DNA of 64,000 nucleotides from Parcubacteria group bacterium Gr01-1014_3 (lineage in GTDB: Bacteria > Patescibacteriota > Minisyncoccia > UBA6257 > WO2-44-18), in the NCBI GenBank assembly GCA_007376445.1, contig VMGF01000003.1, forward strand, positions 31,024 to 95,023, written 5' to 3'. The notes beneath the pieces were generated by a model. It made no database searches. It had not been told where the DNA came from and saw only the letters and a program-made list of their open reading frames with translations. Below are positions 5,172 to 55,684 of this stretch, piece by piece. The first letter of the stretch is position 1. Each line of letters opens with the position of its first letter. Both the position numbers and the translations under genes were made by a program.

Positions 5172-5203
5172 AAAGCCCGGTCGAATGACCGGGTGGTTTT
5201 TTT
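5171..5203. terminator. bidirectional terminator (CCCGGTCGAATGACCGGG + T-run)
   Basis: Hairpin with A and T runs between convergent genes. Confidence 0.65.
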
Positions 5204-6059
5204 AACTTGGAAGCTTTCTGGAAACGCCGACGGCGAATGGGGGTGTTAATGGGGCGCTATCACCAGCCGCAAACGACTTCCGGCTTGCTGGCCACGCCGG
5301 AAGTAGCTTTAAATCGAGCTCAATCGAAACAACCAACTCGGCCACCTGACTATGATCAAGTTTGTCCATACAGCCATAAGAGATTTTTTCCTCAAGAACT
5401 GAAATCCCTTTTGTGCGCATGATAAACACCTTGACCAATTCTTCGATAAAATAGGATTGCTCATATCCGTCGGGTAAATGGTCTAGCCGCGATTTCCAAT
5501 CATATCCGCCGCCAACCCACAAATGCGGCAGAATCGGCATCAGATACCAGCGAAGATCGCAGGTCTGTTTCTGCAAACGATCTGGCTGAATTCCAAAATG
5601 TACAAAACCAAATGACGCGTAAAGCATAGATACACGCCTGGGCTTCATGGGGTGCTGGCCATCGCTATCAAGGCCCAGAAAAGCGATATGCGTCTCGCGA
5701 ATAGTTTTGCCTTTCACAAAGGGGCAGGATGAATTGAGAACATCCGCGTCCCATGGGAATTTCGCCGCCGCGGCAAGCATGGTCTTATTAAACTTCACCT
5801 GGAAGTGTCTTTCCCAATCTTCCACGCCGAAGAAGTTCTCGGCCATAACGGCTTTCACGACCTTGTAGTCCATCGGCATATCCACTCCGCCACGGATCAT
5901 GCACTCGGCAACCTTTTTCGCGTACATCTTATCGGTCGCCAATCTCTCGAGGTGCTTCACTTCCATGCCCTGATCCACCAGCGCATCCATACAATTCAAA
6001 AGCAGCTTAAAGCTCATATTACCAACCGCGCGATCATCTTTCTCTGGCTTCACAGCCAC
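5202..6059 (-). CDS. hypothetical protein (285 aa), C-terminus low-complexity and GC-rich
   Basis: ORF only; 3' 100 nt unusually GC-rich, containing hairpin ACTTCCGGC...GCCGGAAGT. Confidence 0.35.
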   Translation of the reverse strand: MAVKPEKDDRAVGNMSFKLLLNCMDALVDQGMEVKHLERLATDKMYAKKVAECMIRGGVDMPMDYKVVKAVMAENFFGVEDWERHFQVKFNKTMLAAAAKFPWDADVLNSSCPFVKGKTIRETHIAFLGLDSDGQHPMKPRRVSMLYASFGFVHFGIQPDRLQKQTCDLRWYLMPILPHLWVGGGYDWKSRLDHLPDGYEQSYFIEELVKVFIMRTKGISVLEEKISYGCMDKLDHSQVAELVVSIELDLKLLPAWPASRKSFAAGDSAPLTPPFAVGVSRKLPS

Positions 6060-6109
6060 CTCCTCAAATAGTTAAAGTTCCGACTAGATATTACAATAAT
6101 AACTTGCTT

Positions 6110-6240
6110 TTGACAATATAAATTTTCAATTCGCAATTTTACAATTTTCAATCAATTTCCAAGCATGAATTTTCAAATAGTTTGAACTTTCGGTCTTGAC
6201 CCTTGAATGAAAATTGGTATTTGAAAATTGAGAATTAAAG
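6110..6240. repeat. intergenic repeat family A copy 1 (CAATTTTCAAT...GGTCTTGA...GAATGAAAATTGGTATTTGAAAATTGAGAATT)
   Basis: Near-identical blocks at 44075-44190, 47365-47516 and 50210-50290. Confidence 0.7.
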
Positions 6241-6245
6241 AACAT

Positions 6246-7154
6246 TTAAACTTTCAAATATCTTCGCACCGCAATCGTGCTAGAAACTCCGCCAAGAAAA
6301 ATACCAAATAAAAGCTGATAGCCAAACAATATCGGTAAATTACCAAAGAAGTAATTTGTCAGATTCATCTCCGGAATGAACGCGCCGACATAAGGCGAGG
6401 CCAGCGAAACTATCGGCGCCGCGATCATCAAGCTAATTACCGCGGCAATAGCTCCGTAAATAATGCCGTTCACCAGATAAGGCCCATTGATATACATATT
6501 AGAGGAACCCACCAGACGCATAATGCCGATCTCTTCGCGGTTGGAATAGATAGCGAGGCGGATGCTGTTGAAAGTCACCAAGGCGGCGATTAGCGCCAAG
6601 AACATCGTGGCTACCAAGCCAGAGTTCTGGAAGGTATCGATCAGGCGCGCCAAGCGATCAATCGCCAGGCGGTTTTCTGTATAGCTAACCTTTTCAATAA
6701 TCGAAGCCAGATTTTCATTGTCCAAATATTCCACGATGTTGGCATACTGCCCAGGATCATTCGCCTTAACATTCAACGCTGCGAGCAAAGGGTTGGCCTG
6801 CAATTCCGCGAGAGCCTGGGAAACGGTCGGATCATCTTTGTGGTCGTTTTTAAATATCTCTAAGGCCTTTTCTTGAGAAATATATTCCACGCTTTTTACT
6901 TCGACGAGACTTTCCATCGCCCGCTCTAATTTCAAAATTTCATCCTCTTTAGCTACATCTTTAAAATAAACGCTGATATCAATCTTGTCCTGAATTGAAG
7001 TCACCGCCACGCGGGAAATGGCGCTGAAAATGATCAGTCCGTTAAAAACTATCAGAGCCAAGATTAAGACAGCGATGGTGGTGATCGAAAGCCAGCCATT
7101 GCGGCTGAAGCTTTGAAGTCCAAACTTAATTATTCTCGCGAGTGTAGTTGCCAT
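6246..7154 (-). CDS. ftsX: cell division permease FtsX
   Basis: 4-TM topology with periplasmic domain; follows ftsE. Confidence 0.85.
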   Translation of the reverse strand: MATTLARIIKFGLQSFSRNGWLSITTIAVLILALIVFNGLIIFSAISRVAVTSIQDKIDISVYFKDVAKEDEILKLERAMESLVEVKSVEYISQEKALEIFKNDHKDDPTVSQALAELQANPLLAALNVKANDPGQYANIVEYLDNENLASIIEKVSYTENRLAIDRLARLIDTFQNSGLVATMFLALIAALVTFNSIRLAIYSNREEIGIMRLVGSSNMYINGPYLVNGIIYGAIAAVISLMIAAPIVSLASPYVGAFIPEMNLTNYFFGNLPILFGYQLLFGIFLGGVSSTIAVRRYLKV

Positions 7155-9041: not shown

Positions 9042-9852
9042 TGATTTTGAAAAGTTTCGCGGCGTTTTTATACATTACATATTCCATATCCGTCTTGGAA
9101 ATTCCCAGCTTTTTCACATATTTAATATATTCTTTCGGACCAGCGAGCGGCCAATCCGTGCCGAAAATAAGTTTACGGGGCGTCTGTGAATACGCGATCA
9201 GCTCCTTGATCTTCTGTATCGTCATTTTGCCATAAGGCGAGTTAAACCCGTCATGCAAAAACAAACCGGAAATATCGGCATAAACATTCGGATTCCTATA
9301 CAGAACTTCGGCGCAGTCCATCATCCAGGGATTCCCAAGATGCGCTATCACTATCTTTAGATTCGGAAAATCTACTGCCACCTCATCAACACCGAGCGGA
9401 TGCGCGTATTTCACTTTCGCGAAAGTCTTGTAGGCGAGCGTGTCTCCTGTATGGAAAATTACTGGTACGCCCAGTCGGTCGCACATTTCATAGATCGGTC
9501 GCGCGACCGAATCGCCTGGATAGAAATGCTGATAACCGAGGTAAAGTTTAACTCCGACGATCTTTTTCAGCCGGATCAAAACCTCCAGCCGATCCAAATC
9601 TTGCTTGGTGTATTCAGACACGTTCAAAGAACCAATCACATGCAGATTTGAAAGTTCTTCGGTTAATTTGATAAGCGTGTCCGTGGAGGGACCAGTGCCA
9701 TCCTCGCCTCGCCAATTCGCGATCACCAACGCGTGATCCACTTTATTCTTCTTCATCTCCGCTAAAAGAGCGCTTCTTATTTCTTCATAGGACTTTTTAG
9801 CGAACGGAGTATTTTCCAGCTTTGTTATGTGTGTGTGCGCGTCTATGATCAT
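9034..9852 (-). CDS. metal-dependent amidohydrolase (amidohydrolase-2 / TIM-barrel family)
   Basis: IDAHTH N-terminal metal-binding motif, HTGD, IAHLG motifs. Confidence 0.65.
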   Translation of the reverse strand: MIIDAHTHITKLENTPFAKKSYEEIRSALLAEMKKNKVDHALVIANWRGEDGTGPSTDTLIKLTEELSNLHVIGSLNVSEYTKQDLDRLEVLIRLKKIVGVKLYLGYQHFYPGDSVARPIYEMCDRLGVPVIFHTGDTLAYKTFAKVKYAHPLGVDEVAVDFPNLKIVIAHLGNPWMMDCAEVLYRNPNVYADISGLFLHDGFNSPYGKMTIQKIKELIAYSQTPRKLIFGTDWPLAGPKEYIKYVKKLGISKTDMEYVMYKNAAKLFKINV

Positions 9853-9854
9853 GG

Positions 9855-9927
9855 AGCCACCTCCCGGAATCGAACCGGGGACCTTTGCTTTACGAAAGCA
9901 CTGCTCTACCAGCTGAGCTAAGGTGGC
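9855..9927 (-). tRNA. tRNA-Thr (anticodon CGT), copy 1
   Basis: Manual cloverleaf on minus strand: GCCACCT...AGCTGGTAGAGC...loop TTCGTAA...TTCGATT...AGGTGGC; CCA may be encoded (9852-9854). Confidence 0.7.
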
Positions 9928-9934
9928 TTTGACG

Positions 9935-9966
9935 TTATATTATAACATTTCCCGAGTTTTTCCAAA
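9935..9966 (-). promoter_or_regulatory. sigma70-like promoter for tRNA-Thr copy 1 (TTGGAA -35, extended TGTTATAAT -10); duplicated at 10236-10280
   Basis: Minus strand reads TTGGAAaaactcgggaaatgtTATAAT 8 nt before the tRNA 5' end. Confidence 0.55.
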
Positions 9967-10075
9967 GAAAATAAGAGCAGGTGACGAGAATCGTCCGGTC
10001 ATACGACCGGACAGCCCAGTCGGATGACTGGGCGAACTCACGTCTCTACTTTACCCCGCACCTTTTCTCGATTAG

Positions 10076-10147
10076 AGCCAGAGAGAGGAGTCGAACCTCC
10101 AACCCCTCCCTTACGAAGGGATTGCTCTGCCATTGAGCTACTCTGGC
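10076..10147 (-). tRNA. tRNA-Thr-like (anticodon CGT), copy 2, flanked by 35-bp inverted repeats
   Basis: GCCAGAG..GCTCAATGGCAGAGC..loop TTCGTAA..GGAGGTTCGACTCCTCT..CTCTGGC; 27-43 mismatch. Confidence 0.6.
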
Positions 10148-10181
10148 AAATTTTATACGTGATCGAGAAAAGGTGCGGGGT

Positions 10182-10218
10182 TTACGAAAGTAGTGTTCTA
10201 CCACTGAACTATATCGGC
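10182..10218 (-). pseudogene. tRNA 5'-half fragment (acceptor, D-arm, anticodon stem-loop CTACT-TTCGTAA), no 3' half
   Basis: GCCGATATAGTTCAGTGGTAGAACACTACTTTCGTAAA then runs into inverted-repeat sequence; no complementary 3' acceptor nearby. Confidence 0.45.
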
Positions 10219-10284
10219 GTCTCTCTTTATTTAAATACTAGGTCATATTATAACATTTTGCGGATTTTTTCAAAGAAAATAATG

Positions 10285-10356
10285 AGCGGATAACGGGAGT
10301 CGAACCCGTGTCTGATCCTTGGGAAGGATCCATAATAGCCGTTATACGATACCCGC
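10285..10356 (-). tRNA. tRNA-Gly (anticodon CCC)
   Basis: GCGGGTA..GTATAACGGCTATTAT..GGATCC-TTCCCAA..ACGGGTTCGACTCCCGT..TATCCGC. Confidence 0.75.
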
Positions 10357-25376: not shown

Positions 25377-26573
25377 TTATTTAATTATTCCCCCGCCAAG
25401 CATCGTACCTTTCTTATCATAAAAAACTGCCGATTGGCCGGGGGCTACAAATTTCATCGGACGATGAAATTTTAGTTCACCAGTTTTAAGTTTAAAGTTT
25501 AAAGTTAGAACAGCGGGTTGAAGAGGCTGGCGGTAGCGGACGCGGGCGGAAACCGGAATAGCTGTAAGATTGCCGCGGCGCTTTGCGCCTCGCAATGACA
25601 GGGGTTCGAAAAATAAATTAACATCGGTTAATACGACTTCTTTCCGGTAAAGTGCCGGGTTGTCTTCGCCTTCGGCGACGACCACGATATTTTTCTTTAT
25701 ATCTTTACTGGCCACATAAAGCGGCTTGTCGCTACCGCCGACGCCAAGGCCGTGGCGCTGGCCGATCGTATAGAAATGGGCGCCGTGATGCTCTCCTATC
25801 TCGTTGCCGTGAATATCTAGGATTGCTCCCTTCTTCGGCTTAATGTATTTCGCCAAAAAATCCGGCAAAGAAACCTGACCCAAAAAGCAGATGCCCTGCG
25901 AATCCTTTTTCGTGGCATTGTGCAGGCCAAACTTTTCAGCCAGTTTTCGAACCTGCGGCTTTGTGTAATCCCCAACCGGGAACAAACAGTGCTTCAACTG
26001 CTCGGGCTTGAGTGTCCACAAAAAATAAGATTGATCCTTGTTCTTGTCCTTAGCGATCGCTATCATTCTAACTTTCAACTTTGAACTTGGAACTTTTAAC
26101 TCGCGCAGTAGCGCGTAATGCCCCGTCGCCACGAAGTCCGCGCCCATCTCCAGGGCTTTTTTATAAAATAAACCGAATTTAATTTCCTTGTTACACATCA
26201 CATCCGGATTCGGCGTGATCCCTTTTTTATATCCATCCACCATATACTTCACCACTAGGTCTTTATATTCCTGCTCGTAATCAAAAGCGTAAAACGGGAT
26301 ATTCAGATGCTCCGCCGCCCGGCGCGCGTCTTCGGCGTCCTCTGCGGCACAACCATCCACATTGAAACACTTCAAGTGAACTCCCACGACATCGTAGCCT
26401 TCCTTTTTCAGCAATGCCGCGGCTACGGACGAATCAACGCCGCCTGACATACCTACAAACACCCTTCGGCTTGGTTCGGCTACGCTCACCACGAGTCGCT
26501 CAGGGTAAACTATTTTTTGCTTAGAGTTCTTCTTCACGGAATATATTTTACGATAAATTTTCCAAATTGGCAA
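25377..26573 (-). CDS. mnmA: tRNA-specific 2-thiouridylase MnmA, with two in-frame low-complexity insertions
   Basis: VGMSGGVDSSV PP-loop, catalytic Cys region, YFLW motif. Confidence 0.9.
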   Translation of the reverse strand: MPIWKIYRKIYSVKKNSKQKIVYPERLVVSVAEPSRRVFVGMSGGVDSSVAAALLKKEGYDVVGVHLKCFNVDGCAAEDAEDARRAAEHLNIPFYAFDYEQEYKDLVVKYMVDGYKKGITPNPDVMCNKEIKFGLFYKKALEMGADFVATGHYALLRELKVPSSKLKVRMIAIAKDKNKDQSYFLWTLKPEQLKHCLFPVGDYTKPQVRKLAEKFGLHNATKKDSQGICFLGQVSLPDFLAKYIKPKKGAILDIHGNEIGEHHGAHFYTIGQRHGLGVGGSDKPLYVASKDIKKNIVVVAEGEDNPALYRKEVVLTDVNLFFEPLSLRGAKRRGNLTAIPVSARVRYRQPLQPAVLTLNFKLKTGELKFHRPMKFVAPGQSAVFYDKKGTMLGGGIIK

Positions 26574-29015: not shown

Positions 29016-29092
29016 TGTAAATTTTCAATTTTAAATTTTGAAATTTTAATTTAAATTAAAATTTATAATTTCAAATTTTAAATTATTGAGTA
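29016..29092. promoter_or_regulatory. AT-rich palindromic leader element family B copy 1 (contains perfect palindrome AAATTTTAATTTAAATTAAAATTT), directly upstream of tgt
   Basis: Near-identical blocks upstream of rplL (35869-35951) and rnc (46806-46876); no Shine-Dalgarno. Confidence 0.6.
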
Positions 29093-33492: not shown

Positions 33493-34383
33493 TTAGATAA
33501 GCTGTGCCGCCCGTAACTTAGCCGAGCGCGACCTTGGGTTGGTCATAATTTCTGGGTTGGTGGCAATAATGGGTTTTTTTGTCAGGGTTTTCAGTTTCCC
33601 GGATTTTTCGAGGTCACGGAAAGAGTTTTTAACGATCCGGTCTTCCAGGGAATGGAAAGAGATAATGGCGACCCGGGCGCCTGGCTTCAGGATTGTTTCC
33701 AGATTATTTAAAGCTTGCTGTAGATTCTCTAATTCCCGGTTGGCGTAGATGCGGAGCGCCTGGAATGTCCTGGTGGCCGGATGAATACGCCCGCGTTCGT
33801 AGTTTTCCGGAACTGCCGCCTTAACTATTTCGGCCAGCTGCTTGGTAGTCTCGATAGATTTCTTTCTGCCCGCCGCTTTAATGGCCTTGGCAATCTTTGG
33901 CGCGTAACTCTCTTCGCCAAACTCGCTGATGATTTTCGTAAGCTCGGCCTCGGAAAGTTCTTTTAAAATTTCTTGGACTGATTTTGAAGTGGCGCTATAA
34001 GTCATGATCAGCGGCTCGTCGGACTGGAAGCTGAATCCCCTGCCTCCGCCGATCTGTTCGGAAGAAAATCCCAGATCCAAAATCAACCCATCGGCTTTGT
34101 GTAATTTTTTACTTTCCAAAATCGCCGGAAGGTCGGCGTAATTCTCGCCGGTCTTTTCCCAGTCTATTCCCAATACATGCCCGGTGAGACCAACTTTTTC
34201 CCGCAGTGCCGCGGTGTGGCCCTCAGCTCCGGCTGTGCCGTCAATAAAAAATTCTCCCGGCTTCGGATCCAGAACTTTAATAACCTCGTCGAGCAGAACT
34301 GGAACATGTTTAGAATTAGGAATCATGAATAAGGAATTATGGTTGATTAGTTTTATTTGTTTGGGGTGATTTTGAAAATTCAT
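33493..34383 (-). CDS. rsmH: 16S rRNA (cytosine1402-N4)-methyltransferase
   Basis: MraW family SAM-binding motifs (DGTAGAEGH). Confidence 0.9.
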   Translation of the reverse strand: MNFQNHPKQIKLINHNSLFMIPNSKHVPVLLDEVIKVLDPKPGEFFIDGTAGAEGHTAALREKVGLTGHVLGIDWEKTGENYADLPAILESKKLHKADGLILDLGFSSEQIGGGRGFSFQSDEPLIMTYSATSKSVQEILKELSEAELTKIISEFGEESYAPKIAKAIKAAGRKKSIETTKQLAEIVKAAVPENYERGRIHPATRTFQALRIYANRELENLQQALNNLETILKPGARVAIISFHSLEDRIVKNSFRDLEKSGKLKTLTKKPIIATNPEIMTNPRSRSAKLRAAQLI

Positions 34384-34394
34384 AATTCTTGATT

Positions 34395-34826
34395 CTAAAT
34401 TCCTAATTCTCCGAGCTTCTCAGCGATATCGTCGGATGAAGCTTCGGTTTTTGATTTGTAAGATTTCCAACTTGCCTCATCCCAGATTTCGATTCGGTCA
34501 TACAGACCCGCGAAGATTGCCTGTTTTTTTAAAGACGCGTAGTTTCTCAAGTATTCTGGAATTAAAATTCTTCCCTGATTATCAAACTCAACTTCGCTCG
34601 CGCCCGCGAGCATCAAACGAGCGAATGCCCGAGAATCGGATTTCATAAAAGACATGCCGGCAATTTTGGCGGTTAATTTTTCCCAGCTTTCTTTTGTAAA
34701 TACAAACAAGCAGTGATCCAATCCGCGCGCGATAATTGCTCCATCGCCAAGCTGCGGCCGAAATTTAGCCGGTAAAGCTACGCGTCCTTTATTGTCTAAA
34801 CTATGTGTATATTCGCCGATGAACAT
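34395..34826 (-). CDS. mraZ: transcriptional regulator MraZ
   Basis: Duplicated DxxxR motifs, MFIGEYTHSLDNKGRVALP. Confidence 0.9.
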   Translation of the reverse strand: MFIGEYTHSLDNKGRVALPAKFRPQLGDGAIIARGLDHCLFVFTKESWEKLTAKIAGMSFMKSDSRAFARLMLAGASEVEFDNQGRILIPEYLRNYASLKKQAIFAGLYDRIEIWDEASWKSYKSKTEASSDDIAEKLGELGI

Positions 34827-41864: not shown

Positions 41865-44048
41865 CTATTCCAGTTTTACGGAGAGTAATCGCGAAGTTCC
41901 ATCGCTTCCCATCGTAACGCCATACATGATATCCGCCGATTCCATGGTGGCGCGATTATGCGTGACAATAATAAACTGAGTTTTGGAAGAAAAATCTTTA
42001 ACCAGTTCCGCGAACTTTCGCGCGTTGCGTTCGTCCAGGGCGGCATCTACTTCATCAAGCACCAAAAACGGCGGTGGACTGACGGAAATCAAGGCAAACA
42101 AAACCGCCACGGACACCAAGGCCTTTTCTCCGCCAGAAAGCATTTCGAGGCCACTGATCTTTTTGCGAGGAATACTGATGCCCATCTCAATGCCACCGTG
42201 GTCGAATTTATGGTCCTCCTCCCTTTCCGCCGCCCCCTGCCTACCGGCAGGCAGGTCCTCCACCATCGCTTCCTCGGCTTCACTTATAATTTTCTTTTCT
42301 TTTTTAACCAGAGTTAGCTTTGCTGATCCGCCGTCGAAAAGCAGTTTGAAATATTTATTGAATTCTTCGTTGATGGACTTGAGCGCGCTGTTAAATTCTC
42401 CGTGAATTTTCTCATCCAAGTCATTAATAAGTAAGGCGAGATCGGCTGAAGCTTTTTTCAAATCTTCATTTTGCGCGGACAAAAAATTGTAGCGTGATTC
42501 AGTTTCCTGCGCTTCTTTAACTAGCGCCGGATCAAGATCACCAATACCAGCCAACTCCGCGCGCAGCTTGAACATCCGCTTCTCCATCTCGGCGAAATCG
42601 CTAGTCTTTCCGCCCGAGGCGGATCCTCGTTGGGAGGAAAATTCATGCAATCGGCGGCCAGATTGCATCGCCAGGTTTTCCAGTTCTTTCCGGCGGATCT
42701 CTACTCTTTCTCTTTCAAATAAAATTTTATTCTTCTCGGTATCCAGACGCGCCATCTCATCTTTTTTCTGCTCGACTAATTCAAAGGCTCTCCGGAAAGT
42801 GCCGGTGAACTGCTTGAGCGTGTCGTTGAGGTGGCTTTCCGCCTCCCTAAGCTTATTTAAATCAGCGTCCACCGTCTGAATATCCGCCATCGCCTTTTTC
42901 TTAGCACTATCCAATTCAGCGATCTTTTCATCCCGGCCGGAATTATCTGCCTGCAAGCTGTCATCGATACGCTTGATCAGCTTTTGCAAAAGCGACTTCA
43001 CTGCGCCAAAATCGCCTTCATTTAATACCGCGCCAATCGCGCCCTTCACTTCCTCAAGCAGTTTCACCGCCTCCGCGGCTTTAATTTCGCTCTTCGGCTG
43101 AGCCGCCAAAAACTCCATCTGCGCCTCCAAACGGCCAAGTTCTTTTTGAAGTAAAGATTTCCGGTTTAGAACATCGCTCTGCTGTTTTTTAAAATCGTTG
43201 AATCCTTTGTCGTCGGAAGGCTGAGCTTTTTCTACTTTATGTAATTCTTCCTGTAATTTTCTTAATTCTTGATTCTTGATTCCTACTTCCTGATTTATTT
43301 TTTGGATCTGCGGTTCAATGGCGGAAAAATCCGATTCGATCACGCCGAGTCTTCCGCTGAAATAATTTTCCTCCAAAGTTCGCAATTCTTTTTCGACTTC
43401 GGCATGCTTTTCCCAACGCGTGGTCTGGCGTCTTAATAACCGAAGATGTGGCAGTATCTCCTGCACCATCGCCTCCACCTTATCGAGGTTGATCTTGGTA
43501 TTCTTCAGTTTATTCTGCGCCTCATGCTTTTTGAGCTGATACTGACGAAGGCCGAGTACCTCTTCGATCATCTCGCGCCGTTCTTCCTGGCTAGCCCGCA
43601 CGAATAGATCGCTACTGCCCTGGTTTATGATAGAAAACCCTTTTGTGCCGAGGCGGGCTTTGGCAAAAAAATCGATAATGTCTTTTAAGCGGACCTCCGA
43701 GCCATTTAATAAATATTCCGAAGTGCCATCGCGGCTAATCTTGCGGGTAATCGCGATCTCGGTGTAATCAATGGGAAAAAACCGGGTGCTGTTGTCGAAA
43801 ACAATGGTCGCCTGCGCCATACCAACACGCGGGCGCTCCGGCGTGCCAGCGAAGATCAGATCTTCCGCTTTGGCGCCACGGATATTTTTCGCTTCGCGTT
43901 CACCCAAAAGCCAACGCAAAGCGTCGATGACATTCGATTTACCAGAACCATTCGGACCAACAATAGCCGTGATTCCAGCCGGAAAATCGAGCGTGGTTTT
44001 GGAAACAAATGACTTAAAACCCACCAGCTCTAACTGCTTAAGTAGCAT
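41865..44048 (-). CDS. smc: SMC-family chromosome segregation ATPase (short, 727 aa)
   Basis: N-terminal Walker A GPNGSGKSN, long coiled coil, C-terminal LSGGEKALVSVAVLFAL...LDEVDAALDE. Confidence 0.8.
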   Translation of the reverse strand: MLLKQLELVGFKSFVSKTTLDFPAGITAIVGPNGSGKSNVIDALRWLLGEREAKNIRGAKAEDLIFAGTPERPRVGMAQATIVFDNSTRFFPIDYTEIAITRKISRDGTSEYLLNGSEVRLKDIIDFFAKARLGTKGFSIINQGSSDLFVRASQEERREMIEEVLGLRQYQLKKHEAQNKLKNTKINLDKVEAMVQEILPHLRLLRRQTTRWEKHAEVEKELRTLEENYFSGRLGVIESDFSAIEPQIQKINQEVGIKNQELRKLQEELHKVEKAQPSDDKGFNDFKKQQSDVLNRKSLLQKELGRLEAQMEFLAAQPKSEIKAAEAVKLLEEVKGAIGAVLNEGDFGAVKSLLQKLIKRIDDSLQADNSGRDEKIAELDSAKKKAMADIQTVDADLNKLREAESHLNDTLKQFTGTFRRAFELVEQKKDEMARLDTEKNKILFERERVEIRRKELENLAMQSGRRLHEFSSQRGSASGGKTSDFAEMEKRMFKLRAELAGIGDLDPALVKEAQETESRYNFLSAQNEDLKKASADLALLINDLDEKIHGEFNSALKSINEEFNKYFKLLFDGGSAKLTLVKKEKKIISEAEEAMVEDLPAGRQGAAEREEDHKFDHGGIEMGISIPRKKISGLEMLSGGEKALVSVAVLFALISVSPPPFLVLDEVDAALDERNARKFAELVKDFSSKTQFIIVTHNRATMESADIMYGVTMGSDGTSRLLSVKLE

Positions 44049-44074
44049 ACCTTAATTCTAAAACACAAAACTCC

Positions 44075-44190
44075 AATTTCCAATTATCAATTTTCATTCA
44101 ATACGCAATAACCAAACTTTAAACGGTTTAAAAATTGGTTCTTTGAAAATTCAATGAAAATTGCAAAATTGAGAATTGAAAATTAAAGGA
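44075..44190. repeat. intergenic repeat family A copy 2
   Basis: CAATTTTCATTCAAT ... ATTCAATGAAAATTGCAAAATTGAGAATTGAAAATT inverted arms. Confidence 0.65.
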
Positions 44191-44194
44191 GCCC

Positions 44195-45991
44195 CTATGG
44201 GGCTCCGTCAACTATCGCTTCGACTTCTCGTCCATCCAGCGTTTCTTTTTCCAGAAGAGCTTTCGCTATTTTTTCAAGCTTATCCTGATTATCTTTAATC
44301 AACTTCACTGCTAGCTCATAAGCCTCGTCCAGAAGCTTTTTCACTTCCGCGTCAATGATCTGCTTAGTCGCTTCGGAACAATTCATCGTGTCGGAGGTAA
44401 TGTTCAAGAACGCCGCCCGAGTCACAAAAACTTCCTTTCCGACCTTGTCGCTCATGCCATACTCACACACCATAGCTCTCGCAACTCGGCTTGCTTCGCG
44501 GAAATCAGATGAAGCGCCGCTACTTTCGGAATTGAACTTGTACATCTCACCGGCTCGGCCACCCATCATCACCGCCATCTGCGCTAACATCATTTCCTTG
44601 CTTTGAATATGAACGTCTTCGTCCGGAAGCATCCACGTCGCGCCACCCGATGGTCCGCGCGGAATGATCGTCACGATGCGGACAGGATTTGATCCTTTAT
44701 TCCGCAAAAGCGTGGTGATCAGAGCGTGGCCGCCTTCATGATAAGCCGTAATAGCTTTTTCCCGGTCGGGAATAAAATTCTTCGATGCCGCGCCCATCAT
44801 CACTTTAATGATCGCCTCATCCAGATCCGCGCTATCAATCGCGGGTTTTTTCTTACCAACCGCGGCAATTGCCGATTCGTTCATAACCGCGGCCAAGTCA
44901 GCGCCAGAAAACCCGGAAGTGCCCTTAGCAACTCTTTGCAGGCTCACGTCCGGAGCTAATTTCTTACCCTTAGAATGAACCAAGAGAATTGCTTCTCTTG
45001 ATCTAACGTCGGGACGAGCAATTAATATCTTTCGATCTAGCCGGCCAGGCCGGACAATTGCTTCGTCAAGCGATTCTGGGCGGTTCGTCGCCGCCAGAAC
45101 TACCACTCGGTCAGAACTGGAAAAACCATCCATCTCGGTCAAAAGCGAGCTCAAAGTTTGATTGTATTCCTCATGCGTCATGCGCATTGTCCGAGTGCTA
45201 GCAACAGTATCCAATTCATCAATGAAGATGATACAGGGCTGACTCTTGCGGGCTTTCTCAAACATTTCACGGACTCGGCCAGCGCCAACGCCAACGAACA
45301 TTTCCACGAACTTAGAGCCATCCATGCTGATAAAAGCCATATTGGATTCCCCGGCCGTAGCTTTGGCCAGCAAAGTTTTGCCGTTACCAGGAGGTCCAAC
45401 TAGAAGAACTCCTCGCGGAACCTTAGCGCCAACGTCAGTATACTTTGTCGGATTATCAAAAAAATCGACGATCTCTTTCAACTCCTTGATCGCTTCATCG
45501 CAACCGGCCACGTCAGAATATCTCTCCTTCGGTCGCTTTGCTTCGCCGATCTTAGTCTGATCCATGGCCATCTGCCGCTGACGTTTATTGATCCAGAGCA
45601 TCGCGGCGATCAGCAGTAAAATCGGACCAAAGATAAACAACAGGGTGAAGATAATACTCCAGCCCCACCAGGCAGCTTCGGTCTTTTGGCGAGTTACGGG
45701 TATGCCTTTAGCGACCGCTTTCTCCACGAGATCGTTCACGTCAAAAACGGTAGACCGGAATTTATTGCCGTCTGTATATTCGCCTGTCGCGATGGCCGAC
45801 TCCACGTTAACCGCTAACGACTTAACATTTCCATCATTGATTGCCTTATAAAGCTCGGTGACCGTGATGTCCCGCGCTGCTTCCGTAATCGGAACACGCA
45901 CAACTATCATCGAAAGGGCTATCATGATCAGCGAAGCTATAAAAAATATCCGTAAGAAAGCTCTCAGCGGTGAAGGCGGTTTATTTTCCAC
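44195..45991 (-). CDS. ftsH: ATP-dependent zinc metalloprotease FtsH
   Basis: GPPGNGKT Walker A, AAA SRH, HEGGHA zinc motif. Confidence 0.9.
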   Translation of the reverse strand: MENKPPSPLRAFLRIFFIASLIMIALSMIVVRVPITEAARDITVTELYKAINDGNVKSLAVNVESAIATGEYTDGNKFRSTVFDVNDLVEKAVAKGIPVTRQKTEAAWWGWSIIFTLLFIFGPILLLIAAMLWINKRQRQMAMDQTKIGEAKRPKERYSDVAGCDEAIKELKEIVDFFDNPTKYTDVGAKVPRGVLLVGPPGNGKTLLAKATAGESNMAFISMDGSKFVEMFVGVGAGRVREMFEKARKSQPCIIFIDELDTVASTRTMRMTHEEYNQTLSSLLTEMDGFSSSDRVVVLAATNRPESLDEAIVRPGRLDRKILIARPDVRSREAILLVHSKGKKLAPDVSLQRVAKGTSGFSGADLAAVMNESAIAAVGKKKPAIDSADLDEAIIKVMMGAASKNFIPDREKAITAYHEGGHALITTLLRNKGSNPVRIVTIIPRGPSGGATWMLPDEDVHIQSKEMMLAQMAVMMGGRAGEMYKFNSESSGASSDFREASRVARAMVCEYGMSDKVGKEVFVTRAAFLNITSDTMNCSEATKQIIDAEVKKLLDEAYELAVKLIKDNQDKLEKIAKALLEKETLDGREVEAIVDGAP

Positions 45992-46111: not shown

Positions 46112-46804
46112 CTACTCCTCCCATTTCGTCAGAGCCTGCTTGGCCGCGTCTACTTCCGCGTCTTGCTTCGCCTGCCCGCTACCGGTAGCTAAGTGCTTTT
46201 CACCGATATACACGCCAACCCGGAAAACTTTCTGGTGATCTGGACCGCTCTCTTCGAGAACTTTATAGATCGGCGTGATCTTGAATTCGCTCTGCGCCTT
46301 TTCCTGTAAGTTGCTTTTCGCGTCTTTGATCAGTCCTTTTTTGAAAACTTCTTCGAGATGCTCCAATACGAAAGTCACTACGAATTTCTTAGCCGGCGCG
46401 TAGCCGTCGTCTAAATAAATCGCGCCGATAACCGCCTCGATCGCGTTCGCCAAGATCACATCCCTGGCGCGGCCGGTATCTTTTGCTTCTCCGCGGGACA
46501 TCAGCACGTATTTTTCAAGATCAATGGATTTCGCCACCGTGGCCATCATCACGTAATTCACCAGCGCCGCGCGGATCCCGGTCAGCGGGCCCTCTTTATA
46601 ATCTGGGTACCTATTATATAGCTCCTCGGTGACGATCAGCTCCAGCACCGCGTCGCCCAAAAACTCCAGCCGTTCGTTGTGAGGTACTTCCCACTTTGGG
46701 TTTTCATTTAAATACGAGCGGTGCGTCAAAGCCTCCTTCAAAAGGTCTTTGTTCTTAAAAACATAATCTACGTTTTTTTCAAACGTTTTAATATTTTGTA
46801 ACAT
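46112..46804 (-). CDS. rnc: ribonuclease III
   Basis: ERLEFLGDAVL catalytic signature; C-terminal dsRBD. Confidence 0.9.
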   Translation of the reverse strand: MLQNIKTFEKNVDYVFKNKDLLKEALTHRSYLNENPKWEVPHNERLEFLGDAVLELIVTEELYNRYPDYKEGPLTGIRAALVNYVMMATVAKSIDLEKYVLMSRGEAKDTGRARDVILANAIEAVIGAIYLDDGYAPAKKFVVTFVLEHLEEVFKKGLIKDAKSNLQEKAQSEFKITPIYKVLEESGPDHQKVFRVGVYIGEKHLATGSGQAKQDAEVDAAKQALTKWEE

Positions 46805-46805
46805 C

Positions 46806-46876
46806 AGACAAATTTTAAATTTTTAATTTTGAAATTTTAAATTAATTTAAAATTTTTAATTTATAATTGAAAATTA
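46806..46876. promoter_or_regulatory. AT-rich palindromic leader element family B copy 3, directly upstream of rnc
   Basis: TTTAAAATTTTTAATTTATAATTGAAAATTATT core. Confidence 0.6.
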
Positions 46877-47350
46877 TTTTTCAGCCGCTTTCTCTTTCTT
46901 CTCCCTCTTCGGCTCCTCTTTCAAGTCGCCTGAGGCGATCATCTGCTTATAAACCGTGCCAAGCACGCCATTAATAAATTTACCGGAATTCGGACCGCCG
47001 TAATTTTTCGAAATCTCAATGGCTTCATTAATCGCCACCTTCGGTGGAACTTCCTCATGATCGGCATACATCAGCTCATAAAGTCCGATACGAATGGCAT
47101 TGCGGTCAATAATCGCGATCTGCTCAAGCGGCCAATCCGGCGCGACCTTCGTGATTATCTCGTTCAGGTCTTTTAAATGTTCAACTATCCCCTTTACTAA
47201 ACGCCAGGCAAAATCCGGCTCATCGATACCCGGAGCGAACTCCAGTAAGTTCCTCTCAACGATCTTGATAAGGTCATTCTTCTGACTATAAAAATCCCAC
47301 TCGTACAAAGATTGTAGGACTACGGAACGCGCTAGTTGTCGAGTAGCCAT
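46874..47350 (-). CDS. nusB: transcription antitermination factor NusB with Lys/Glu-rich tail
   Basis: NusB fold signature. Confidence 0.85.
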
Positions 47351-47364
47351 GTTTTTATTATTAC

Positions 47365-47516
47365 AGAAAAATTCTCAATTTTCAAATACCTGTTTTTGAA
47401 TTTCCAAATATCAATTTTGCAATTTTCAATCAATTTACAATGAATTAATTTTCAAAACCATTGATCCTTAGGTCTTGATGATTGAATGAAAATTGGTATT
47501 TGGAAATTGAAAATTA
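47365..47516. repeat. intergenic repeat family A copy 3 (longest)
   Basis: Aligns along about 110 nt with copy 1 at 6128-6240. Confidence 0.7.
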
Positions 47517-47766
47517 CTTAGAGGATCCGTAGTGGGCGCACTGTGGGCAGGTTTTGTGCGACAAAACCGGACCCTGGCAATTCGGGCATACGGAAATATT
47601 CAGCTTCTTGAGGGCCATATGCGAACGCCTGCGCCCCGTCTTCCCTTTTGAATGATGTTTTGTTGGTACACCTCCCATAAATTTATTAGTTAGATTATAT
47701 AGCTATTTCAGATTTTCGTCAACTTTGACTTTCAAATACACCGAGGCGTAAAATTAAGGGAGTTGT

Positions 47767-48973: not shown

Positions 48974-50182
48974 ATGAGACGAATCGTGGCTGTCGCCGGA
49001 CTGCTTGTTTGTGTTGCTATTATGACCGGATGCATCCCAAGTTTCTTGAAGCCGACCTATAGCAACTTCGCTGAAAATCTTGCGTTGGACCAAGACACTT
49101 CGTTTGGATGTGACGACGCCAAGGATGGCTTAGCCAAGCCTGAAAAAACTGCCGAAGAAATCTATCAATGCGTTAACGTAGTTCATCTTGAATTGGTGGT
49201 TGGATTAAGCCGGGAGGCCGGAAGCGCGGCGGGATTCGTTGTGAAATACAACAACAAACCGCACATTCTGACCGCGGGCCACGTTAACACGACCAACGTC
49301 AAATTCAAGGCAATCTATGCTTACTTCAGCCAGGGCCATCAGAGGCCGGAAGAAGTTGAGATCGTTGTTTCGGATAATTTCCTGGACTTTGCCTTGCTCC
49401 GATTCAAAGATCCGAAGTTCGTCTACGATGGCCCATACGCGGTACTTGGCTGTTCTAGCGGCTTGAGTGTTGGGCAAAAAGTATACGCGCTTGGGTCTCC
49501 GCTCGGATTCCGATACTACTTTTCGGAAGGGATCATCGGAAAGATCGAGCAGGGCATGGATCATGACGGAATTCTCCAGCCGGAGATCATCATGCATGGC
49601 GCCACGATCAATCCAGGAAATTCCGGCGGACCGCTGGTTGATAAGTATGGAAGAGTAGTCGGCATCAATGTGATGGGCATCAGCGGGGGTTTCTCTCCGT
49701 TCCGTCCGTCGATAGTCACTACTATGCCGGTCGCGATACCGATCGATGATGTGAAATCTGTGGTCATGCGTACCAGAAAAGGCGGACCTGTTGAGCATTC
49801 CTATCTCGGACTCAAACTCTGGGACACGCGCGACCTCAATCCGTTGGACTACGAACAGCGCGAGGTGACAATTCCCGACCGAGATGGCCTGATCGTTTTC
49901 CTGATGGCAAAGAATTCGCCGGCCGCGAAATCGGGCCTTCAAAAGGGCGATCTGATCCTGGAATGCGACGGTAAAAAGTACGACCGCACCTGCGAGATCG
50001 CCAAGCGCGCGCTTTTCGAGACCGAACCCGGAACCGAAATGGAATTTAAGGTTCTGCGGCAATACACCGGTTATCAGATTGTTGAAACCAATGAAAAAGG
50101 TATGGCTGTGTACAAGACCGCTTATACCAAAATGAAGAATCCAGCCGTCCTGACCATCAAAGTCAAGCCGGAGGTTAGGTAA
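48974..50182 (+). CDS. trypsin-like serine protease with PDZ domain (HtrA-like lipoprotein), paralog 2
   Basis: Lipobox IMTGC; LTAGHV, DFALL, GNSGGPL; C-terminal PDZ. Confidence 0.8.
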   Translation: MRRIVAVAGLLVCVAIMTGCIPSFLKPTYSNFAENLALDQDTSFGCDDAKDGLAKPEKTAEEIYQCVNVVHLELVVGLSREAGSAAGFVVKYNNKPHILTAGHVNTTNVKFKAIYAYFSQGHQRPEEVEIVVSDNFLDFALLRFKDPKFVYDGPYAVLGCSSGLSVGQKVYALGSPLGFRYYFSEGIIGKIEQGMDHDGILQPEIIMHGATINPGNSGGPLVDKYGRVVGINVMGISGGFSPFRPSIVTTMPVAIPIDDVKSVVMRTRKGGPVEHSYLGLKLWDTRDLNPLDYEQREVTIPDRDGLIVFLMAKNSPAAKSGLQKGDLILECDGKKYDRTCEIAKRALFETEPGTEMEFKVLRQYTGYQIVETNEKGMAVYKTAYTKMKNPAVLTIKVKPEVR

Positions 50183-50209
50183 ACAATCGTCCCCGCAAAT
50201 GCGGGGACT

Positions 50210-50290
50210 TTTAATTTTCAATTCTCAATTTTGCAATTTTCAAATTTGGAAATTGAATGAAAATTGGTAATTGGAAATTGATAATTGGTG
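50210..50290. repeat. intergenic repeat family A copy 4 (short)
   Basis: CAATTTTGCAATTTTCAAATTTGGAAATTGAATGAAAATTGGTAATTGGAAATTG. Confidence 0.65.
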
Positions 50291-50324
50291 TTGTATAGTC
50301 TTGGTAGTTACTTGAAAGGGCTCA

Positions 50325-51068
50325 TTGGTGGAGAAAATTCTCTCGATCACGCTTGCGCTGATCTTCTGTCAGGCCTGTACTCCCGCGGAGATCCAGCCAC
50401 TACCCGATCCCCTAGCGAATTTGCCGGTCAAAACCGCCCAGCAGATCTACGACGAAGCTGATTATTTCGTGATGATTGAAGGAAGCCGGTACGCCGATGG
50501 CGATTTTCAATCCTTCAAGCTTTCCGGGTTTTTGCTTCAATACGCCGACACCTACTATATAGTTACCGCCGGGCATATCAAAAAACCCGGACAGATCATC
50601 TCCGAACCTCTCCGTGTAACTTTGAAAAATGAGACGAACCGTTACTATCACGCCAAAATTCTCGCGATAGATAATGACTATGACGTGGCAATCCTGAAGA
50701 TCGGTTCGGACGCCTTCGATTTTCGCGGCAATATCGGCAAGTTCGGGAACTCCGACTTGGTTGAATTAGATGATCCAGTAATATCCATCGGGAATCCGCC
50801 CGGACACGACTGGCATCTTTCCACCGGAAAAGTGTTAAGTCGGAACTATCGCAACTATAAAAACGTCGCCAAGCATATTCAGCATTCCGCCTGGGGCGGC
50901 CATGGCAGTTCCGGCGGCCCATTACTCAACCGTTACGGTCAGATCATCGGCATGAACATTTCGATGAAGACCGCCAGCATCGACGAAACGAGCTCGAACC
51001 GGATCAACGCTCTTCCCGCGAAATATATTCAAAGATTTTTAGAAAAGGTTTTGCAAAATCCCCACTAG
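50325..51068 (+). CDS. trypsin-like serine protease without PDZ domain, paralog 3
   Basis: Signal peptide; VTAGHI, DVAIL, GSSGGPL triad. Confidence 0.7.
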   Translation: MVEKILSITLALIFCQACTPAEIQPLPDPLANLPVKTAQQIYDEADYFVMIEGSRYADGDFQSFKLSGFLLQYADTYYIVTAGHIKKPGQIISEPLRVTLKNETNRYYHAKILAIDNDYDVAILKIGSDAFDFRGNIGKFGNSDLVELDDPVISIGNPPGHDWHLSTGKVLSRNYRNYKNVAKHIQHSAWGGHGSSGGPLLNRYGQIIGMNISMKTASIDETSSNRINALPAKYIQRFLEKVLQNPH

Positions 51069-54100: not shown

Positions 54101-54310
54101 GTTCAAAAAATAGTAACCCGCCTCGGCCAACCGATGGTCTTCGTGAAGGTGGAAGATATGAATACCACGCTGGAAGTCGTCGTCTTCTCCGACACGCTCG
54201 CGAAAAACCCCGACATCTGGCAAGAAAATAAGATCTTAGTCATCAATGGCAAAATGTCCTGGCGCAACGGCGAGCAGAAACTCATCTGCAATAGCGCGAC
54301 TGAAGTATAA
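51149..54310 (+). CDS. dnaE: DNA polymerase III alpha subunit (short form)
   Basis: PHP domain HTHSHYSLLDG, polymerase core, OB-fold; start placed at ATG. Confidence 0.9.
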   Translation: MPRFTHLHTHSHYSLLDGLTQINDLVKRAKELGMDSLAVTDHGNLYGAIEFYKAAKAAGIKPILGVEAYIMPNTNGNSTTTERYYHLIILCKNLTGWKNLLKLITHANLEGFYYKPRINKDFLRKHSEGLIALSACLAGEVSRAIMANKMPEAEKIALEYQDIFGAGNFYLEVGHHPGIKETIKAGAGLIEISKKTGIPLAATQDIHYLKKEDAKYHDILLAVQTGNKLNDPDRLTLKDDDFSMRSPEEMASFFTHIPEAIENTAKIADMCNIELELGKIQLPKFAVPVDKSAQDYLKQLIEERTSKRYAVLNEVVQQRISYELSVVEKMGFADYFLIVQDFINWAKDRGIVVGPGRGSAAGSIVAYILGITDVDPIKYELLFERFLNPDRIQMPDIDIDIADHRRGEVLAYLTQKYGDDRVAHIITFGTMAARASIRDVGRALDISLAFCDQLAKLIPFNQDLDEALKSTSELATLYRTNPDAQRIIDAAKKLEGVARHASMHACGIVISNEPLINQLPLQRAPQDENSILTQFEMHTVEDLGLLKMDLLGLKNLTIIENALVLIKENHGVDLDIHKLPEWDAKTEKLLQAADTTGVFQFESSGMRRYMKEIKPSELEDLIALVALYRPGPMDLIPDYIQVKHGLKQVKYLHPKLEPILKTTYGVGIYQEQMMRIARDLAGFTLAEADTLRKAIGKKIKELLDKQEEKLIKGMLANGIEPATAKAIWELFPPFARYGFNRSHAACYALIGYQTAYLKANYPVELMTAVLNADSGDTDRISFLITECQKMGIQILPPDINKSSARFTPEDKNIRFGLAAIKNVGENIVKLLIEERQRGGPFPDLVSLLQRVQNRDLNKKSLESLAKCGVFDSLNIERNQIVANLEDIVKFSSLVKKTGQSTQMGLFGNTISSKSLKLAPAAAAGTQERLLWEKELLGLYLSDHPLNSYKEKFRSAGIRDIKDVMTSANPATPNTMYKIGGLVSKVQKIVTRLGQPMVFVKVEDMNTTLEVVVFSDTLAKNPDIWQENKILVINGKMSWRNGEQKLICNSATEV

Positions 54311-54347
54311 AAAAGCACCCATTTCTGGGTGCTTGCTAGTCACTATT

Positions 54348-55557: not shown

Positions 55558-55585
55558 CAGCCACTATCACATGTGATAGTGGCTG
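55558..55585. promoter_or_regulatory. 28-bp perfect palindrome CAGCCACTATCACATGTGATAGTGGCTG downstream of the HTH gene
   Basis: Third copy of the palindrome family. Confidence 0.7.
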
Positions 55586-55592
55586 GAAAATA

Positions 55593-55671
55593 AAGTCCTG
55601 GTCGTAAGCGGGAAAATGAGCTGGCGTAACGGCGAACAGAAACTCATCTGTAATAGCGCGGTGGAAATATA
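55593..55671 (+). pseudogene. duplicated 3' end of dnaE (encodes KVLVVSGKMSWRNGEQKLICNSAVEI*), direct-repeat partner of 54231-54310, with its own terminator at 55668-55700
   Basis: About 85% nucleotide identity to the real dnaE 3' end. Confidence 0.65.
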
Positions 55672-55684
55672 AATGCTCCGGTAA

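Follow-up and report, generated by a model that had tools for sequence, protein, structure and literature searches.

The stretch of DNA analysed here, hereafter the window, comprises 64,000 nucleotides of contig VMGF01000003.1 (positions 31,024 to 95,023) of Parcubacteria group bacterium Gr01-1014_3, and the spacers next to its ftsX-like, ftsH, smc-like, rpmF, nusB and htrA-like genes hold four AT-rich imperfect palindromes of 78-118 nt each, designated family A (copies c1 to c4). An initial annotation had described a four-copy intergenic repeat with nested inverted arms; the four copies were found at about the coordinates it gave and are homologous both on direct reading and in multiple alignment, with c2 in reverse orientation, a point absent from that annotation. 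Each arm is ~35 nt long and is built of ~5 units of 7-8 nt, which are of the CAATTTT type in the left arm (consensus TTTTAATTTTCAATTCTCAATTTTGCAATTTTCAATCAATTT) and of the complementary AAAATTG type in the right arm (consensus TTGAATGAAAATTGGTAWTTGGAAATTGAAAATT), and the arms enclose a centre of ~45 nt in c1, c2 and c3 and of 9 nt in c4. The comparisons presented below suggest, with a probability of roughly 0.72, that family A consists of derivatives resembling miniature inverted-repeat transposable elements (MITEs), without an open reading frame (ORF), of a cassette in which a gene for a four-helix-bundle protein (PF05635/TIGR02436, a relative of Avd) lies between inverted arrays of ~5 heptamers.

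The arms are mutually inverted, as first described, and every copy folds as a single long imperfect hairpin (-22 to -35 kcal/mol, z = -3.8 to -4.9, equalled by 0-2 of 200 shuffles) with a predicted stem of ~30-45 bp. The two arms are not simple mirror images, since the alignment revealed arm-specific differences common to all copies: ..CAATCAAT.. in the left arm vs ..ATTGAATG.. in the right, and CTCAATTTTG in the left vs CCAAWTAC in the right. These left- and right-specific differences, together with the homologous centre, indicate that the copies descend from one whole element. The similarity is most extended between c1 and c3, with 79% identity across an 82-nt stretch, and the GGTCTTGA core that had been ascribed to the family as a whole was present in these two copies but not in c2 or c4. 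Comparison with known RNA families gave no match at gathering thresholds, the hits with E <= 1 being sub-threshold and limited to families of AU-rich hairpins that are unrelated.

The units are short and AT-rich, and the enrichment of GAAAATTG taken alone is weak (13 matches in the window vs 7.3 expected, with 5 of 100 shuffles reaching 13), which would fit a similarity produced by chance in AT-rich, low-complexity intergenic DNA. The comparison with shuffled controls, set as the refuting test in the initial annotation, nevertheless came out for real repeats. Clusters of three or more CAAWT or AWTTG units number eight in the 64 kb and correspond exactly to the four left and four right arms, all paired left-then-right, whereas dinucleotide shuffles of the window contain 0-3 such clusters. 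The right arms have 31-32 of 34 bases in common, whereas the best match in 2000 random sequences of 5 kb with the elements' own AT-rich dinucleotide composition was 27/34, and neither the 82-nt stretch shared by c1 and c3 nor the folding z-scores fit a chance product. None of the four copies lies inside coding sequence, in agreement with their description as strictly intergenic. The cluster shuffles and the composition controls for the right arms refute a chance origin, for which we see next to no probability. Several recognised motifs were also considered for the arms and dropped. The repeats are not DNA-uptake sequences, as the motif is not dispersed and nearly all 13 GAAAATTG sites lie within the elements, with no enrichment outside; the half-sites of a CodY box (AATTTTCWGAAAATT) are not juxtaposed; and no consistent match was obtained with IHF, CtsR or H-NS sites or with the Bacteroidetes -7 motif TAnnTTTG.

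When one genome per species was scanned for a 21-mer taken from the window right arm, 21 loci were recovered, ~15 of them from diverse bacteria of the candidate phyla radiation (CPR; Saccharibacteria, Peribacteria, Falkow-, Morani-, Berkel- and Roizmanbacteria). At these loci the motif again occurs in (CAATTTT)n ... (AAAATTG)n palindromes, with further arms every few kb, all intergenic, and the asymmetry between left and right arms observed in the window recurs, for example in loci L002 and L017. In three loci (L007, L011 and L005), the left and right arms are ~360 nt apart and bracket a gene of 119-127 aa from its ATG to its stop codon, the cassette being located between fpg and holA. The product of this gene matches PF05635, '23S rRNA intervening-sequence protein' (E = 6e-16), and TIGR02436, 'four helix bundle protein' (E = 6e-21), and its nearest solved structure is PDB 2RLD (E = 1e-11). 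PF05635 is considered a homologue of Avd, a protein of diversity-generating retroelements (PMC10053308). Locus L106, from Parcubacteria, has the same design, with a PF05635 gene and very similar arms. Cassettes with an intact gene were observed in Saccharibacteria-like as well as Parcubacteria loci.

When the cassette ends were compared with the 64-kb window, the family A arms were their best matches (87-94% over 31-46 nt, E = 1e-8 to 3e-6), and polarity was retained, with 5' ends matching left arms and 3' ends matching right arms. For the L007 cassette, the 5' end aligned with c1 at 6121-6156 (92% over 36 nt, E = 1e-8) and with c3 at 47398-47443, including the ATG (87% over 46 nt, E = 2e-7), and the 3' end with c2 at 44102-44072 (94% over 31 nt, E = 5e-8). 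In the alignment with c3, CAATCAATTTACAATGAATT stands opposite CAATCAATCTACAATGACG of L007, where the ATG is the start codon of the gene, and c1 reads ..CAAGCATGAA.. at the corresponding position. Thus the left arms of c1 and c3 carry a relic ATG at their inner ends, and the ORF that would follow is lacking in the window copies. The agreement of window and cassette arms in polarity, the retention of the inner ATG and the lack of the ORF point to MITE-like deletion derivatives.

The distribution of the elements among related genomes was also compared; NusB similarity places the organism as a relative of Parcubacteria/Paceibacterota. Two relatives, L104 and L105 (NusB 81-82% identical), keep the synteny and have short spacers: the ftsH-smc spacer measures 44 nt in L104 and 50 nt in L105 against 146 nt in the window, the nusB-rnc spacer 28 and 48 nt against 69 nt, and the rplJ-rplL spacer 6 nt in L105 against 83 nt. 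Across 2 x 20 kb of these two genomes there were no CAATT/AATTG clusters other than two degenerate runs of L104 (472-506 and 13620-13654) inside called genes. The rpmF-nusB spacer holds a different palindrome, of TTCATAAAG units, in L103 (NusB 96% identical), and yet another, of AAATCCAAA units, in L105; at another site, between rpsP and the khpA promoter, L104 has a four-helix-bundle cassette and L105 is empty. The absence of the elements from the same spacers in close relatives indicates fast turnover. Contig L001, which comes from another sample and encodes an identical NusB, is interrupted within c3 and c2, as expected of repeated DNA. The MITE-like architecture proposed in the initial annotation is therefore backed by the shared arm differences, the occurrence in both orientations, the absence from the spacers of relatives and the existence of a longer, gene-bearing version in other CPR bacteria. 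As a separate observation, the nusB-rnc spacer of L103 (895-1005) contains a GC-richer palindromic repeat, GGGGTCATTCTGAACACTGCGACTTCGCTCAGTG...GATCCTTCGCTGTGCTCAGGATGACTC, where the window has a family B element (described below), and thus a further repeat family of this lineage.

Several points weigh against a derivation from the cassette. The arms are low-complexity heptamer arrays, and their similarity across phyla is partly ascertained, because the loci were required to contain the window 21-mer. No PF05635 homologue was found in the 64-kb window by tblastn, and PF05635 is, to our knowledge, not a known recombinase. The flanking target-site duplications that had been proposed for inspection were not seen on reading the flanks of c1-c4, nor was any common target sequence. 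An FtsH-based metagenome scan returned mostly proteins of 40-50% identity from unrelated bacteria and a single useful relative, L023 (FtsH 94% identical), which is the closest one and shows no clean empty site; its ftsH-smc spacer is rearranged, ~190 nt long and rich in GC hairpins, and retains only the position of the terminator, the TAGAATTAAGGT region and what may be remnants of the arms. P0216 occurs on many contigs, always in the same context, and so gives no evidence of multiple insertion sites. In all four window copies, the cassette-sense strand forms the more stable fold of the two strands (by 2.4-8.4 kcal/mol), an advantage that recurs in only 4 of 7 full cassettes. In addition, c2 and c4 may rarely be transcribed, because they are placed between a terminator and a promoter. 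The derivation could also have run in the reverse direction, with the ORF captured by a pre-existing palindrome, which is less likely.

Two further observations concern the surroundings of the cassettes. In L005 (6322-7413), from a Patescibacteria genome, the four-helix-bundle gene in the CAATTTT-armed cassette is split by a 1.1-kb insertion containing a 277-aa ORF on the opposite strand. A Y1 transposase gene (L106 5292-5372; PF01797, of the IS200/IS605 or RAYT type), also present in L108, L109 and L112-L114, is located ~2.4 kb downstream of the intact CAATTTT-armed cassette, a proximity that may be a coincidence. Y1 enzymes act on hairpin ends and leave no target duplications.

The coordinates of the elements and of the features around them are given in Table 1, with gene context taken from Pfam scans and a list of small ORFs.

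Table 1. Family A and family B elements of the window, their parts and the features that adjoin them (RBS, ribosome-binding site).
Feature	Coordinates	Strand	Structure	Context
c1	6120-6236	+	left arm 6120-6158; centre 6159-6202; relic ATG 6165-6167; right arm 6203-6236	FtsX-like 6246-7154 (-), c1, hypothetical 5202-6059 (-); antisense to host transcription
c2	44072-44187	- (reverse)	on + strand: right arm 44072-44102; centre 44103-44146; left arm 44147-44187	FtsH 44195-45991 (-), GC hairpin, c2, SMC-like 41865-44048 (-); sense to host transcription
c3	47398-47515	+	left arm 47398-47438; relic ATG 47440-47442; centre to 47481; right arm 47482-47515	rpmF (L32) 47514-47678 (-), c3, nusB 46874-47350 (-), B3, rnc; antisense
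c4, short form	50210-50287	+	left arm 50210-50243; centre 9 nt; right arm 50253-50287	HtrA-like 48974-50182 (+), GC hairpin, c4, HtrA-like 50325-51068 (+); sense
Solo right-arm fragment preceding c3	47370-47390	-	GGTATTTGAAAATTGAGAATT on minus strand; 93% complementary to c1 right arm	
ftsH terminator hairpin, GC-rich	44188-44206	-	GGAGCCCCATAGGGGCTCC TTTAATTTTC	includes ftsH stop codon; T-rich left arm of c2 directly after
HtrA-like gene 2 terminator hairpin, GC-rich	50189-50208	+	GTCCCCGCAAATGCGGGGAC TTTTAATTTT	left arm of c4 directly after
Promoter-like site, SMC-like gene	44055-44083	-	-35 TTGGAA in c2 right arm; 17 nt; -10 TAGAAT outside	6 nt, then ATG
Promoter-like site, HtrA-like gene 3	50271-50299	+	-35 TTGGAA in c4 right arm; 17 nt; -10 TATAGT outside	GAAAGGG RBS; TTG start
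Promoter-like site, nusB	47385-47357	-	solo-arm TTGAAA; 17 nt; TGtAATAAT	ends 6 nt before nusB ATG
Promoter-like site by c1	6088-6116	-	TTGTCA-17-TAATAT just outside left arm; read from sequence	upstream of GAGGAGG RBS of ORF 5202-6059
RNase III gene	46112-46804	-	Ribonucleas_3_3 E = 2e-38; dsrm E = 7e-14	putative cleaver of element stems
B1	29020-29087			between Sua5/YrdC-like and Tgt genes; L007 cassette 5' end matches 29020-29039 (95% over 20 nt)
B2	35875-35943			within rplJ-rplL spacer
B3	46810-46878		TTAAAA-17-TAAAAT 7 nt before rnc ATG	fills nusB-rnc spacer; overlaps nusB stop

The neighbouring genes had in part been named wrongly, since c3 is flanked by rpmF and nusB and not by the first HtrA-like paralogue; a 54-aa L32 gene (Pfam E = 2e-13) ends at the right edge of c3, and the right arm overlaps the rpmF stop codon. 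All seven elements of families A and B lie tail-to-head between co-directional genes, an arrangement that is only marginally unusual (p ~0.05) given that 22 of the 34 window spacers of at least 60 nt are co-directional. This arrangement would suit locally evolved regulatory modules, composed of a terminator U tract, an UP element and a -35 box, in which the palindrome is a side effect of T-rich tails facing A-rich upstream sequence and no mobile DNA is involved. Such an origin would also account for the GC hairpins immediately next to the left arms of c2 and c4, for promoter-like pairs such as TTGGAA-17-TAGAAT (c2), TTGGAA-17-TATAGT (c4), TTGAAA-17-TGtAATAAT (nusB) and TTAAAA-17-TAAAAT (rnc), and for the conservation at 33 of 35 positions, in three genomes, of the right arm upstream of holA, where the flanking coding sequence is ~75% identical. 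A consensus scan found sigma-70-type geometry, with the -35 box in the right arm and the -10 box outside it, at c2, c4 and the nusB solo arm, and not at c1; the site of the SMC-like gene has leaderless geometry. Part of this pattern is built into the repeat, as tandem TTGAAAA heptads give TTGAAA-17-GAWAAT automatically (6 + 17 = 23 = 3 x 7 + 2). The regulatory origin leaves other features unexplained: the arm-specific differences and the homologous centre are those of copies of one element and not of convergent spacers, orientation relative to host transcription is 2:2 (c2 and c4 sense, with the left arm first, and c1 and c3 antisense), c1 supplies no -35 box and has its right arm directed into the 3' end of ftsX, spacers of 6-50 nt suffice in relatives, and a promoter or terminator module does not explain arms placed ~360 nt apart around a gene in L007 and L011. 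Moreover, the smc -10 box and its surroundings (TAGAATTAAGGT) are kept in L023, which has no element there. The suggestion of shared promoter modules in the initial annotation survives only as a by-product, in the form of TTGGAA or TTGAAA boxes 17 nt upstream of outside -10 boxes (c2, c4 and the solo arm), and we regard a regulatory origin of the elements as unlikely. A leaderless or internal promoter wholly inside the right arm, considered for the holA site, was rejected, the spacing being 14-15 nt or the -10 box too near the ATG.

Beyond the elements themselves, -10 boxes, often TG-extended, were observed ending 6-7 nt before the ATG of genes with no RBS, at nusB (47357-47385), smc (44055-44083) and rnc (46812-46841). 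The TG-extended box of nusB is kept in three related genomes (TGtAATAAT, TGaTAAACT and TGaTATAGT in the window, L103 and L104 regions compared). The position of these boxes, without an RBS and with conservation in the case of nusB, suggests that leaderless mRNAs are common in this lineage.

If family A is derived from the cassette, its copies would be selfish or neutral relics, and they may survive in tail-to-head spacers because these are 'safe', lying between the stop codon or terminator of the gene upstream and the -10 box of the one downstream. Once transcribed, the arms would pair into an AU-rich stem of 30-45 bp that the RNase III encoded in the window should cleave, and cleavage would either uncouple the flanking cistrons or just remove the insert from the transcript. 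The stem is identical on either strand, so orientation would be irrelevant. Some copies might also have been exapted: in c2 and c4, the T-rich left arm could provide the U tract for the GC hairpin terminator before it, and the outermost TTGGAA or TTGAAA heptads of the right arm (c2, c4 and the nusB solo arm) could serve as -35 boxes for -10 boxes located outside. Both the RNase III cleavage and the promoter use are what we infer from the arrangement of the elements.

Arms of this kind are not restricted to the CAATTTT heptamer. Other four-helix-bundle genes, encountered by chance, are bracketed by inverted heptamers of unrelated sequence, of the GAAATTC type in L104 and of the GAAATCA type in L005b, and two soil-bacterial loci with 54-55% GC (L034 and L042) have GGATGAA / TTCATCC arms around the gene. 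A tblastn search of plasmids returned 30 records, mostly from Nostoc and other cyanobacteria and also from Bacteroidota, Chloroflexota, Treponema and Monoglobus. Many of the 20 plasmid loci examined from these records had near-perfect arrays, such as (TAATTCG)5 - gene - (TTACGAA)5, (CAATTCG)5 / (CGAATTG)5 and (GTCGGAR)4 / (CGACYTC)5, with 13-14 units per array in two cases. Overall, arrays range from 3 to 14 units, and the heptamer sequence differs between cassette types and is inherited together with the respective protein variant. Plasmid cassette genes are usually co-oriented within operons (drmD/MmeI, hsdS/hsdR, RND adaptor/permease, helicase/methylase), and in L120 and L127 the four-helix-bundle gene lies between cas2 and cas1 on the opposite strand. 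A strict automatic criterion required at least three tandem 7-mers, with at least 18 of 21 bases complementary on the far side of the gene within 140 nt. Of the 27 four-helix-bundle genes sampled from CPR, Cyanobacteria, Chloroflexota and soil bacteria, 15 passed, compared with 4 of 1143 control ORFs of 90-150 aa; three of these four were themselves four-helix-bundle genes, which leaves 1 of ~1140 controls. The fourth passing control (L069, 3020-3760) is a 146-aa ORF with no Pfam match between inverted A-rich and T-rich arrays (AAAAGTAAAAAGGAAAAAGG... / ...CCTTTTTCTTTTTTACCTTTTTACTTTT), and it indicates that similar armed cassettes may carry other cargo.

These association statistics support a broader reading, which we put forward as a tentative possibility: heptamer-armed four-helix-bundle genes could form a distinct, unnamed and pan-bacterial class of small mobile cassettes that unites ORF-bearing 23S intervening sequences (IVSs), many heptamer repeats of Cyanobacteria and CPR bacteria, and the palindromes of the window. 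In such a class, the pentameric protein might recognise its own arms, as RNA or DNA, and aid the processing or copying of the element, perhaps in partnership with a reverse transcriptase, like Avd.

The arrays might instead be binding sites for a sequence-specific protein acting in trans, either a pentameric four-helix-bundle protein encoded elsewhere or a nucleoid or RNA-binding protein, which could for example control translation of the downstream gene; the copies would then serve as sites of regulation or processing. Sites for a nucleoid protein or transcription factor had been suggested in the initial annotation, and the results speak neither for nor against them. bAvd is a pentamer, and in many cassettes each arm has ~4-5 heptamers, with the heptamer sequence co-inherited with the protein variant. 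The S23p homologue of Xanthomonas is also reported as a pentamer (PMC4990558), and arms end 1-10 nt from start codons that often have no RBS. In this they resemble the TAACTGA heptamers of Beggiatoaceae, which have been proposed to involve a post-transcriptional regulator (PMC4679880). Conservation of the right arm upstream of holA would be in line with such a role. On the other side, the window encodes no PF05635 protein, and GAAAATTG shows no enrichment beyond the elements, which hold nearly all of its 13 matches in the window (7 expected). An array length of 3-14 units is a loose fit to a pentamer, so that one pentamer to five heptamers stays speculation. Trans-acting binding sites are, in our estimation, an improbable explanation of family A, and descent from the four-helix-bundle cassette is preferred.

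The window holds additional repeats, of which family B is the closest to family A. Its three members (B1 to B3, Table 1) are AT-only palindromes of AATTTTN heptamers, with a left arm that resembles that of family A; they end 7-10 nt before start codons without an RBS, and B2 interrupts the normally tight rplJ-rplL junction. A third family of palindromic arrays, with 30-nt arms (AGAATTAGGAATCATGAATAAGGAATTATG / CATAATTCTTGATTCTAAATTCCTAATTCT), is found at 34312-34410. A perfect palindrome of 26 nt (AGCCACTATCACATGTGATAGTGGCT) is identical at 37352-37377 and 55559-55584, with variants at 22625 and 55019, and could be a terminator-like hairpin or an operator. A gene-end stretch of 94 nt is duplicated with 79% identity at 54218-54311 and 55580-55673, and a 41-nt repeat (9934-9974 and 10242-10282) adjoins tRNA-Thr(CGT) and tRNA-Gly(CCC) of the 9852-10356 cluster. 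Tandem heptamer arrays also occur in frame within two tRNA-modification genes: a TrmD-like gene (38077-38739, -), with arrays at 38158-38185 and 38490-38517 that encode Lys-rich inserts, and an MnmA-like gene (25377-26573, -), with arrays at 25482-25502 and 26070-26090 that encode the Lys-rich NFKLKTGELKF and ELKVPSSKLKVR. In each of these genes, one array is of the (AAAACTT)n type and the other of the (AAAAGTT)n type, and the two are not complementary to each other.

Bacterial MITEs and REPINs, such as the Correia (NEMIS) elements of Neisseria and the repetitive extragenic palindromic (REP) sequences and REPINs associated with RAYT transposases, are short intergenic hairpin repeats, and Correia elements can donate outward promoters and form hairpins sensitive to RNase III. 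Like them, family A elements are ~80-150 nt long, non-coding, multi-copy and strictly intergenic, have terminal inverted repeats, occur in both orientations, and belong to genome-specific families with quick turnover; as with MITEs, presence or absence is polymorphic, here at the ftsH-smc, nusB-rnc and rplJ-rplL spacers of L104 and L105. Unlike MITEs, they have no TA or other target duplication. A longer element with the same termini exists in other CPR bacteria; its only gene encodes a four-helix-bundle protein, which is not a recognised transposase, and no DDE or Y1 transposase shares these ends (window ORFs were not scanned systematically for Y1 enzymes). Their termini are tandem heptamer arrays instead of the unique inverted repeats of MITEs and REPINs, and the arms have no GTAG-type REP head.

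The short tandemly repeated repetitive (STRR) sequences of cyanobacteria are intergenic tandem heptamers. TAACTGA heptamer repeats occur in Beggiatoaceae, Cyanobacteria and Bacteroidetes, with 169 direct sets and one inverted set in a Beggiatoa genome (PMC4679880), and the intergenic repeats of Nostoc include (TTTTGAA)3 and (GACYAAT)8 (bioRxiv 10.1101/2022.06.06.494920). The elements described here share with the TAACTGA and STRR repeats the intergenic tandem 7-nt units (2-6 or more), often a few nt before a start codon without an RBS, the patchy distribution across phyla and the indels in 7-nt steps. They differ from these direct arrays in that the window unit is CAATTTT and the arrays occur as inverted pairs, which form a hairpin or bracket a gene. 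Neither of the two studies links heptamer repeats to four-helix-bundle genes ('four helix' and 'S23' appear 0 times in PMC4679880), and no description of the present elements was found in the literature on CPR repeats, exact heptamer strings and STRR.

With Avd, the cassette gene shares membership of the four-helix-bundle superfamily (PMC10053308). In contrast to Avd systems, no reverse transcriptase or template/variable repeat pair adjoins the cassettes examined, and the window copies are gene-less. The IVS of the Coxiella burnetii 23S rRNA gene contains a decaying S23p ORF, has a terminal inverted-repeat stem of 28 bp that is cut by RNase III in vitro, and carries, immediately ahead of the ATG, two to four tandem copies of a heptamer (GACAGAT) (PMC4990558). 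The resemblance to S23p IVSs, such as those of Coxiella and Leptospira, is considerable: the terminal inverted repeats pair as a long stem, tandem heptamers occupy the terminal region adjoining the ATG of the four-helix-bundle gene, the ORF is prone to decay or loss, and IVSs are regarded as selfish and are patchily distributed. A PF05635 gene is likewise enclosed, only in the related cassettes (L007, L011, L005 and L106). The window copies differ in lying between protein-coding genes and not in helix 25 or 45 of 23S rRNA (the window has no rRNA), in lacking the ORF (centre of 9-45 nt), and in having arms that are much more AT-rich and almost entirely made of heptamers, with RNase III cutting predicted only.

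The comparison links three puzzles that are decades old, namely the origin and mobility of rRNA IVSs with S23p ORFs, the role of four-helix-bundle genes and the purpose of intergenic heptamer repeats, and it provides a testable model that combines a stem cut by RNase III, a protein possibly binding its own arms, and miniature derivatives. It is also of use for annotation, as regards spurious ORFs in heptamer arrays, contig breaks at repeats (as in L001) and hybrid promoters in the ultra-small genomes of CPR bacteria. The IVS-like design itself is already published; what is new here is the origin proposed for the window repeats, as the gene-less form of the four-helix-bundle cassette.

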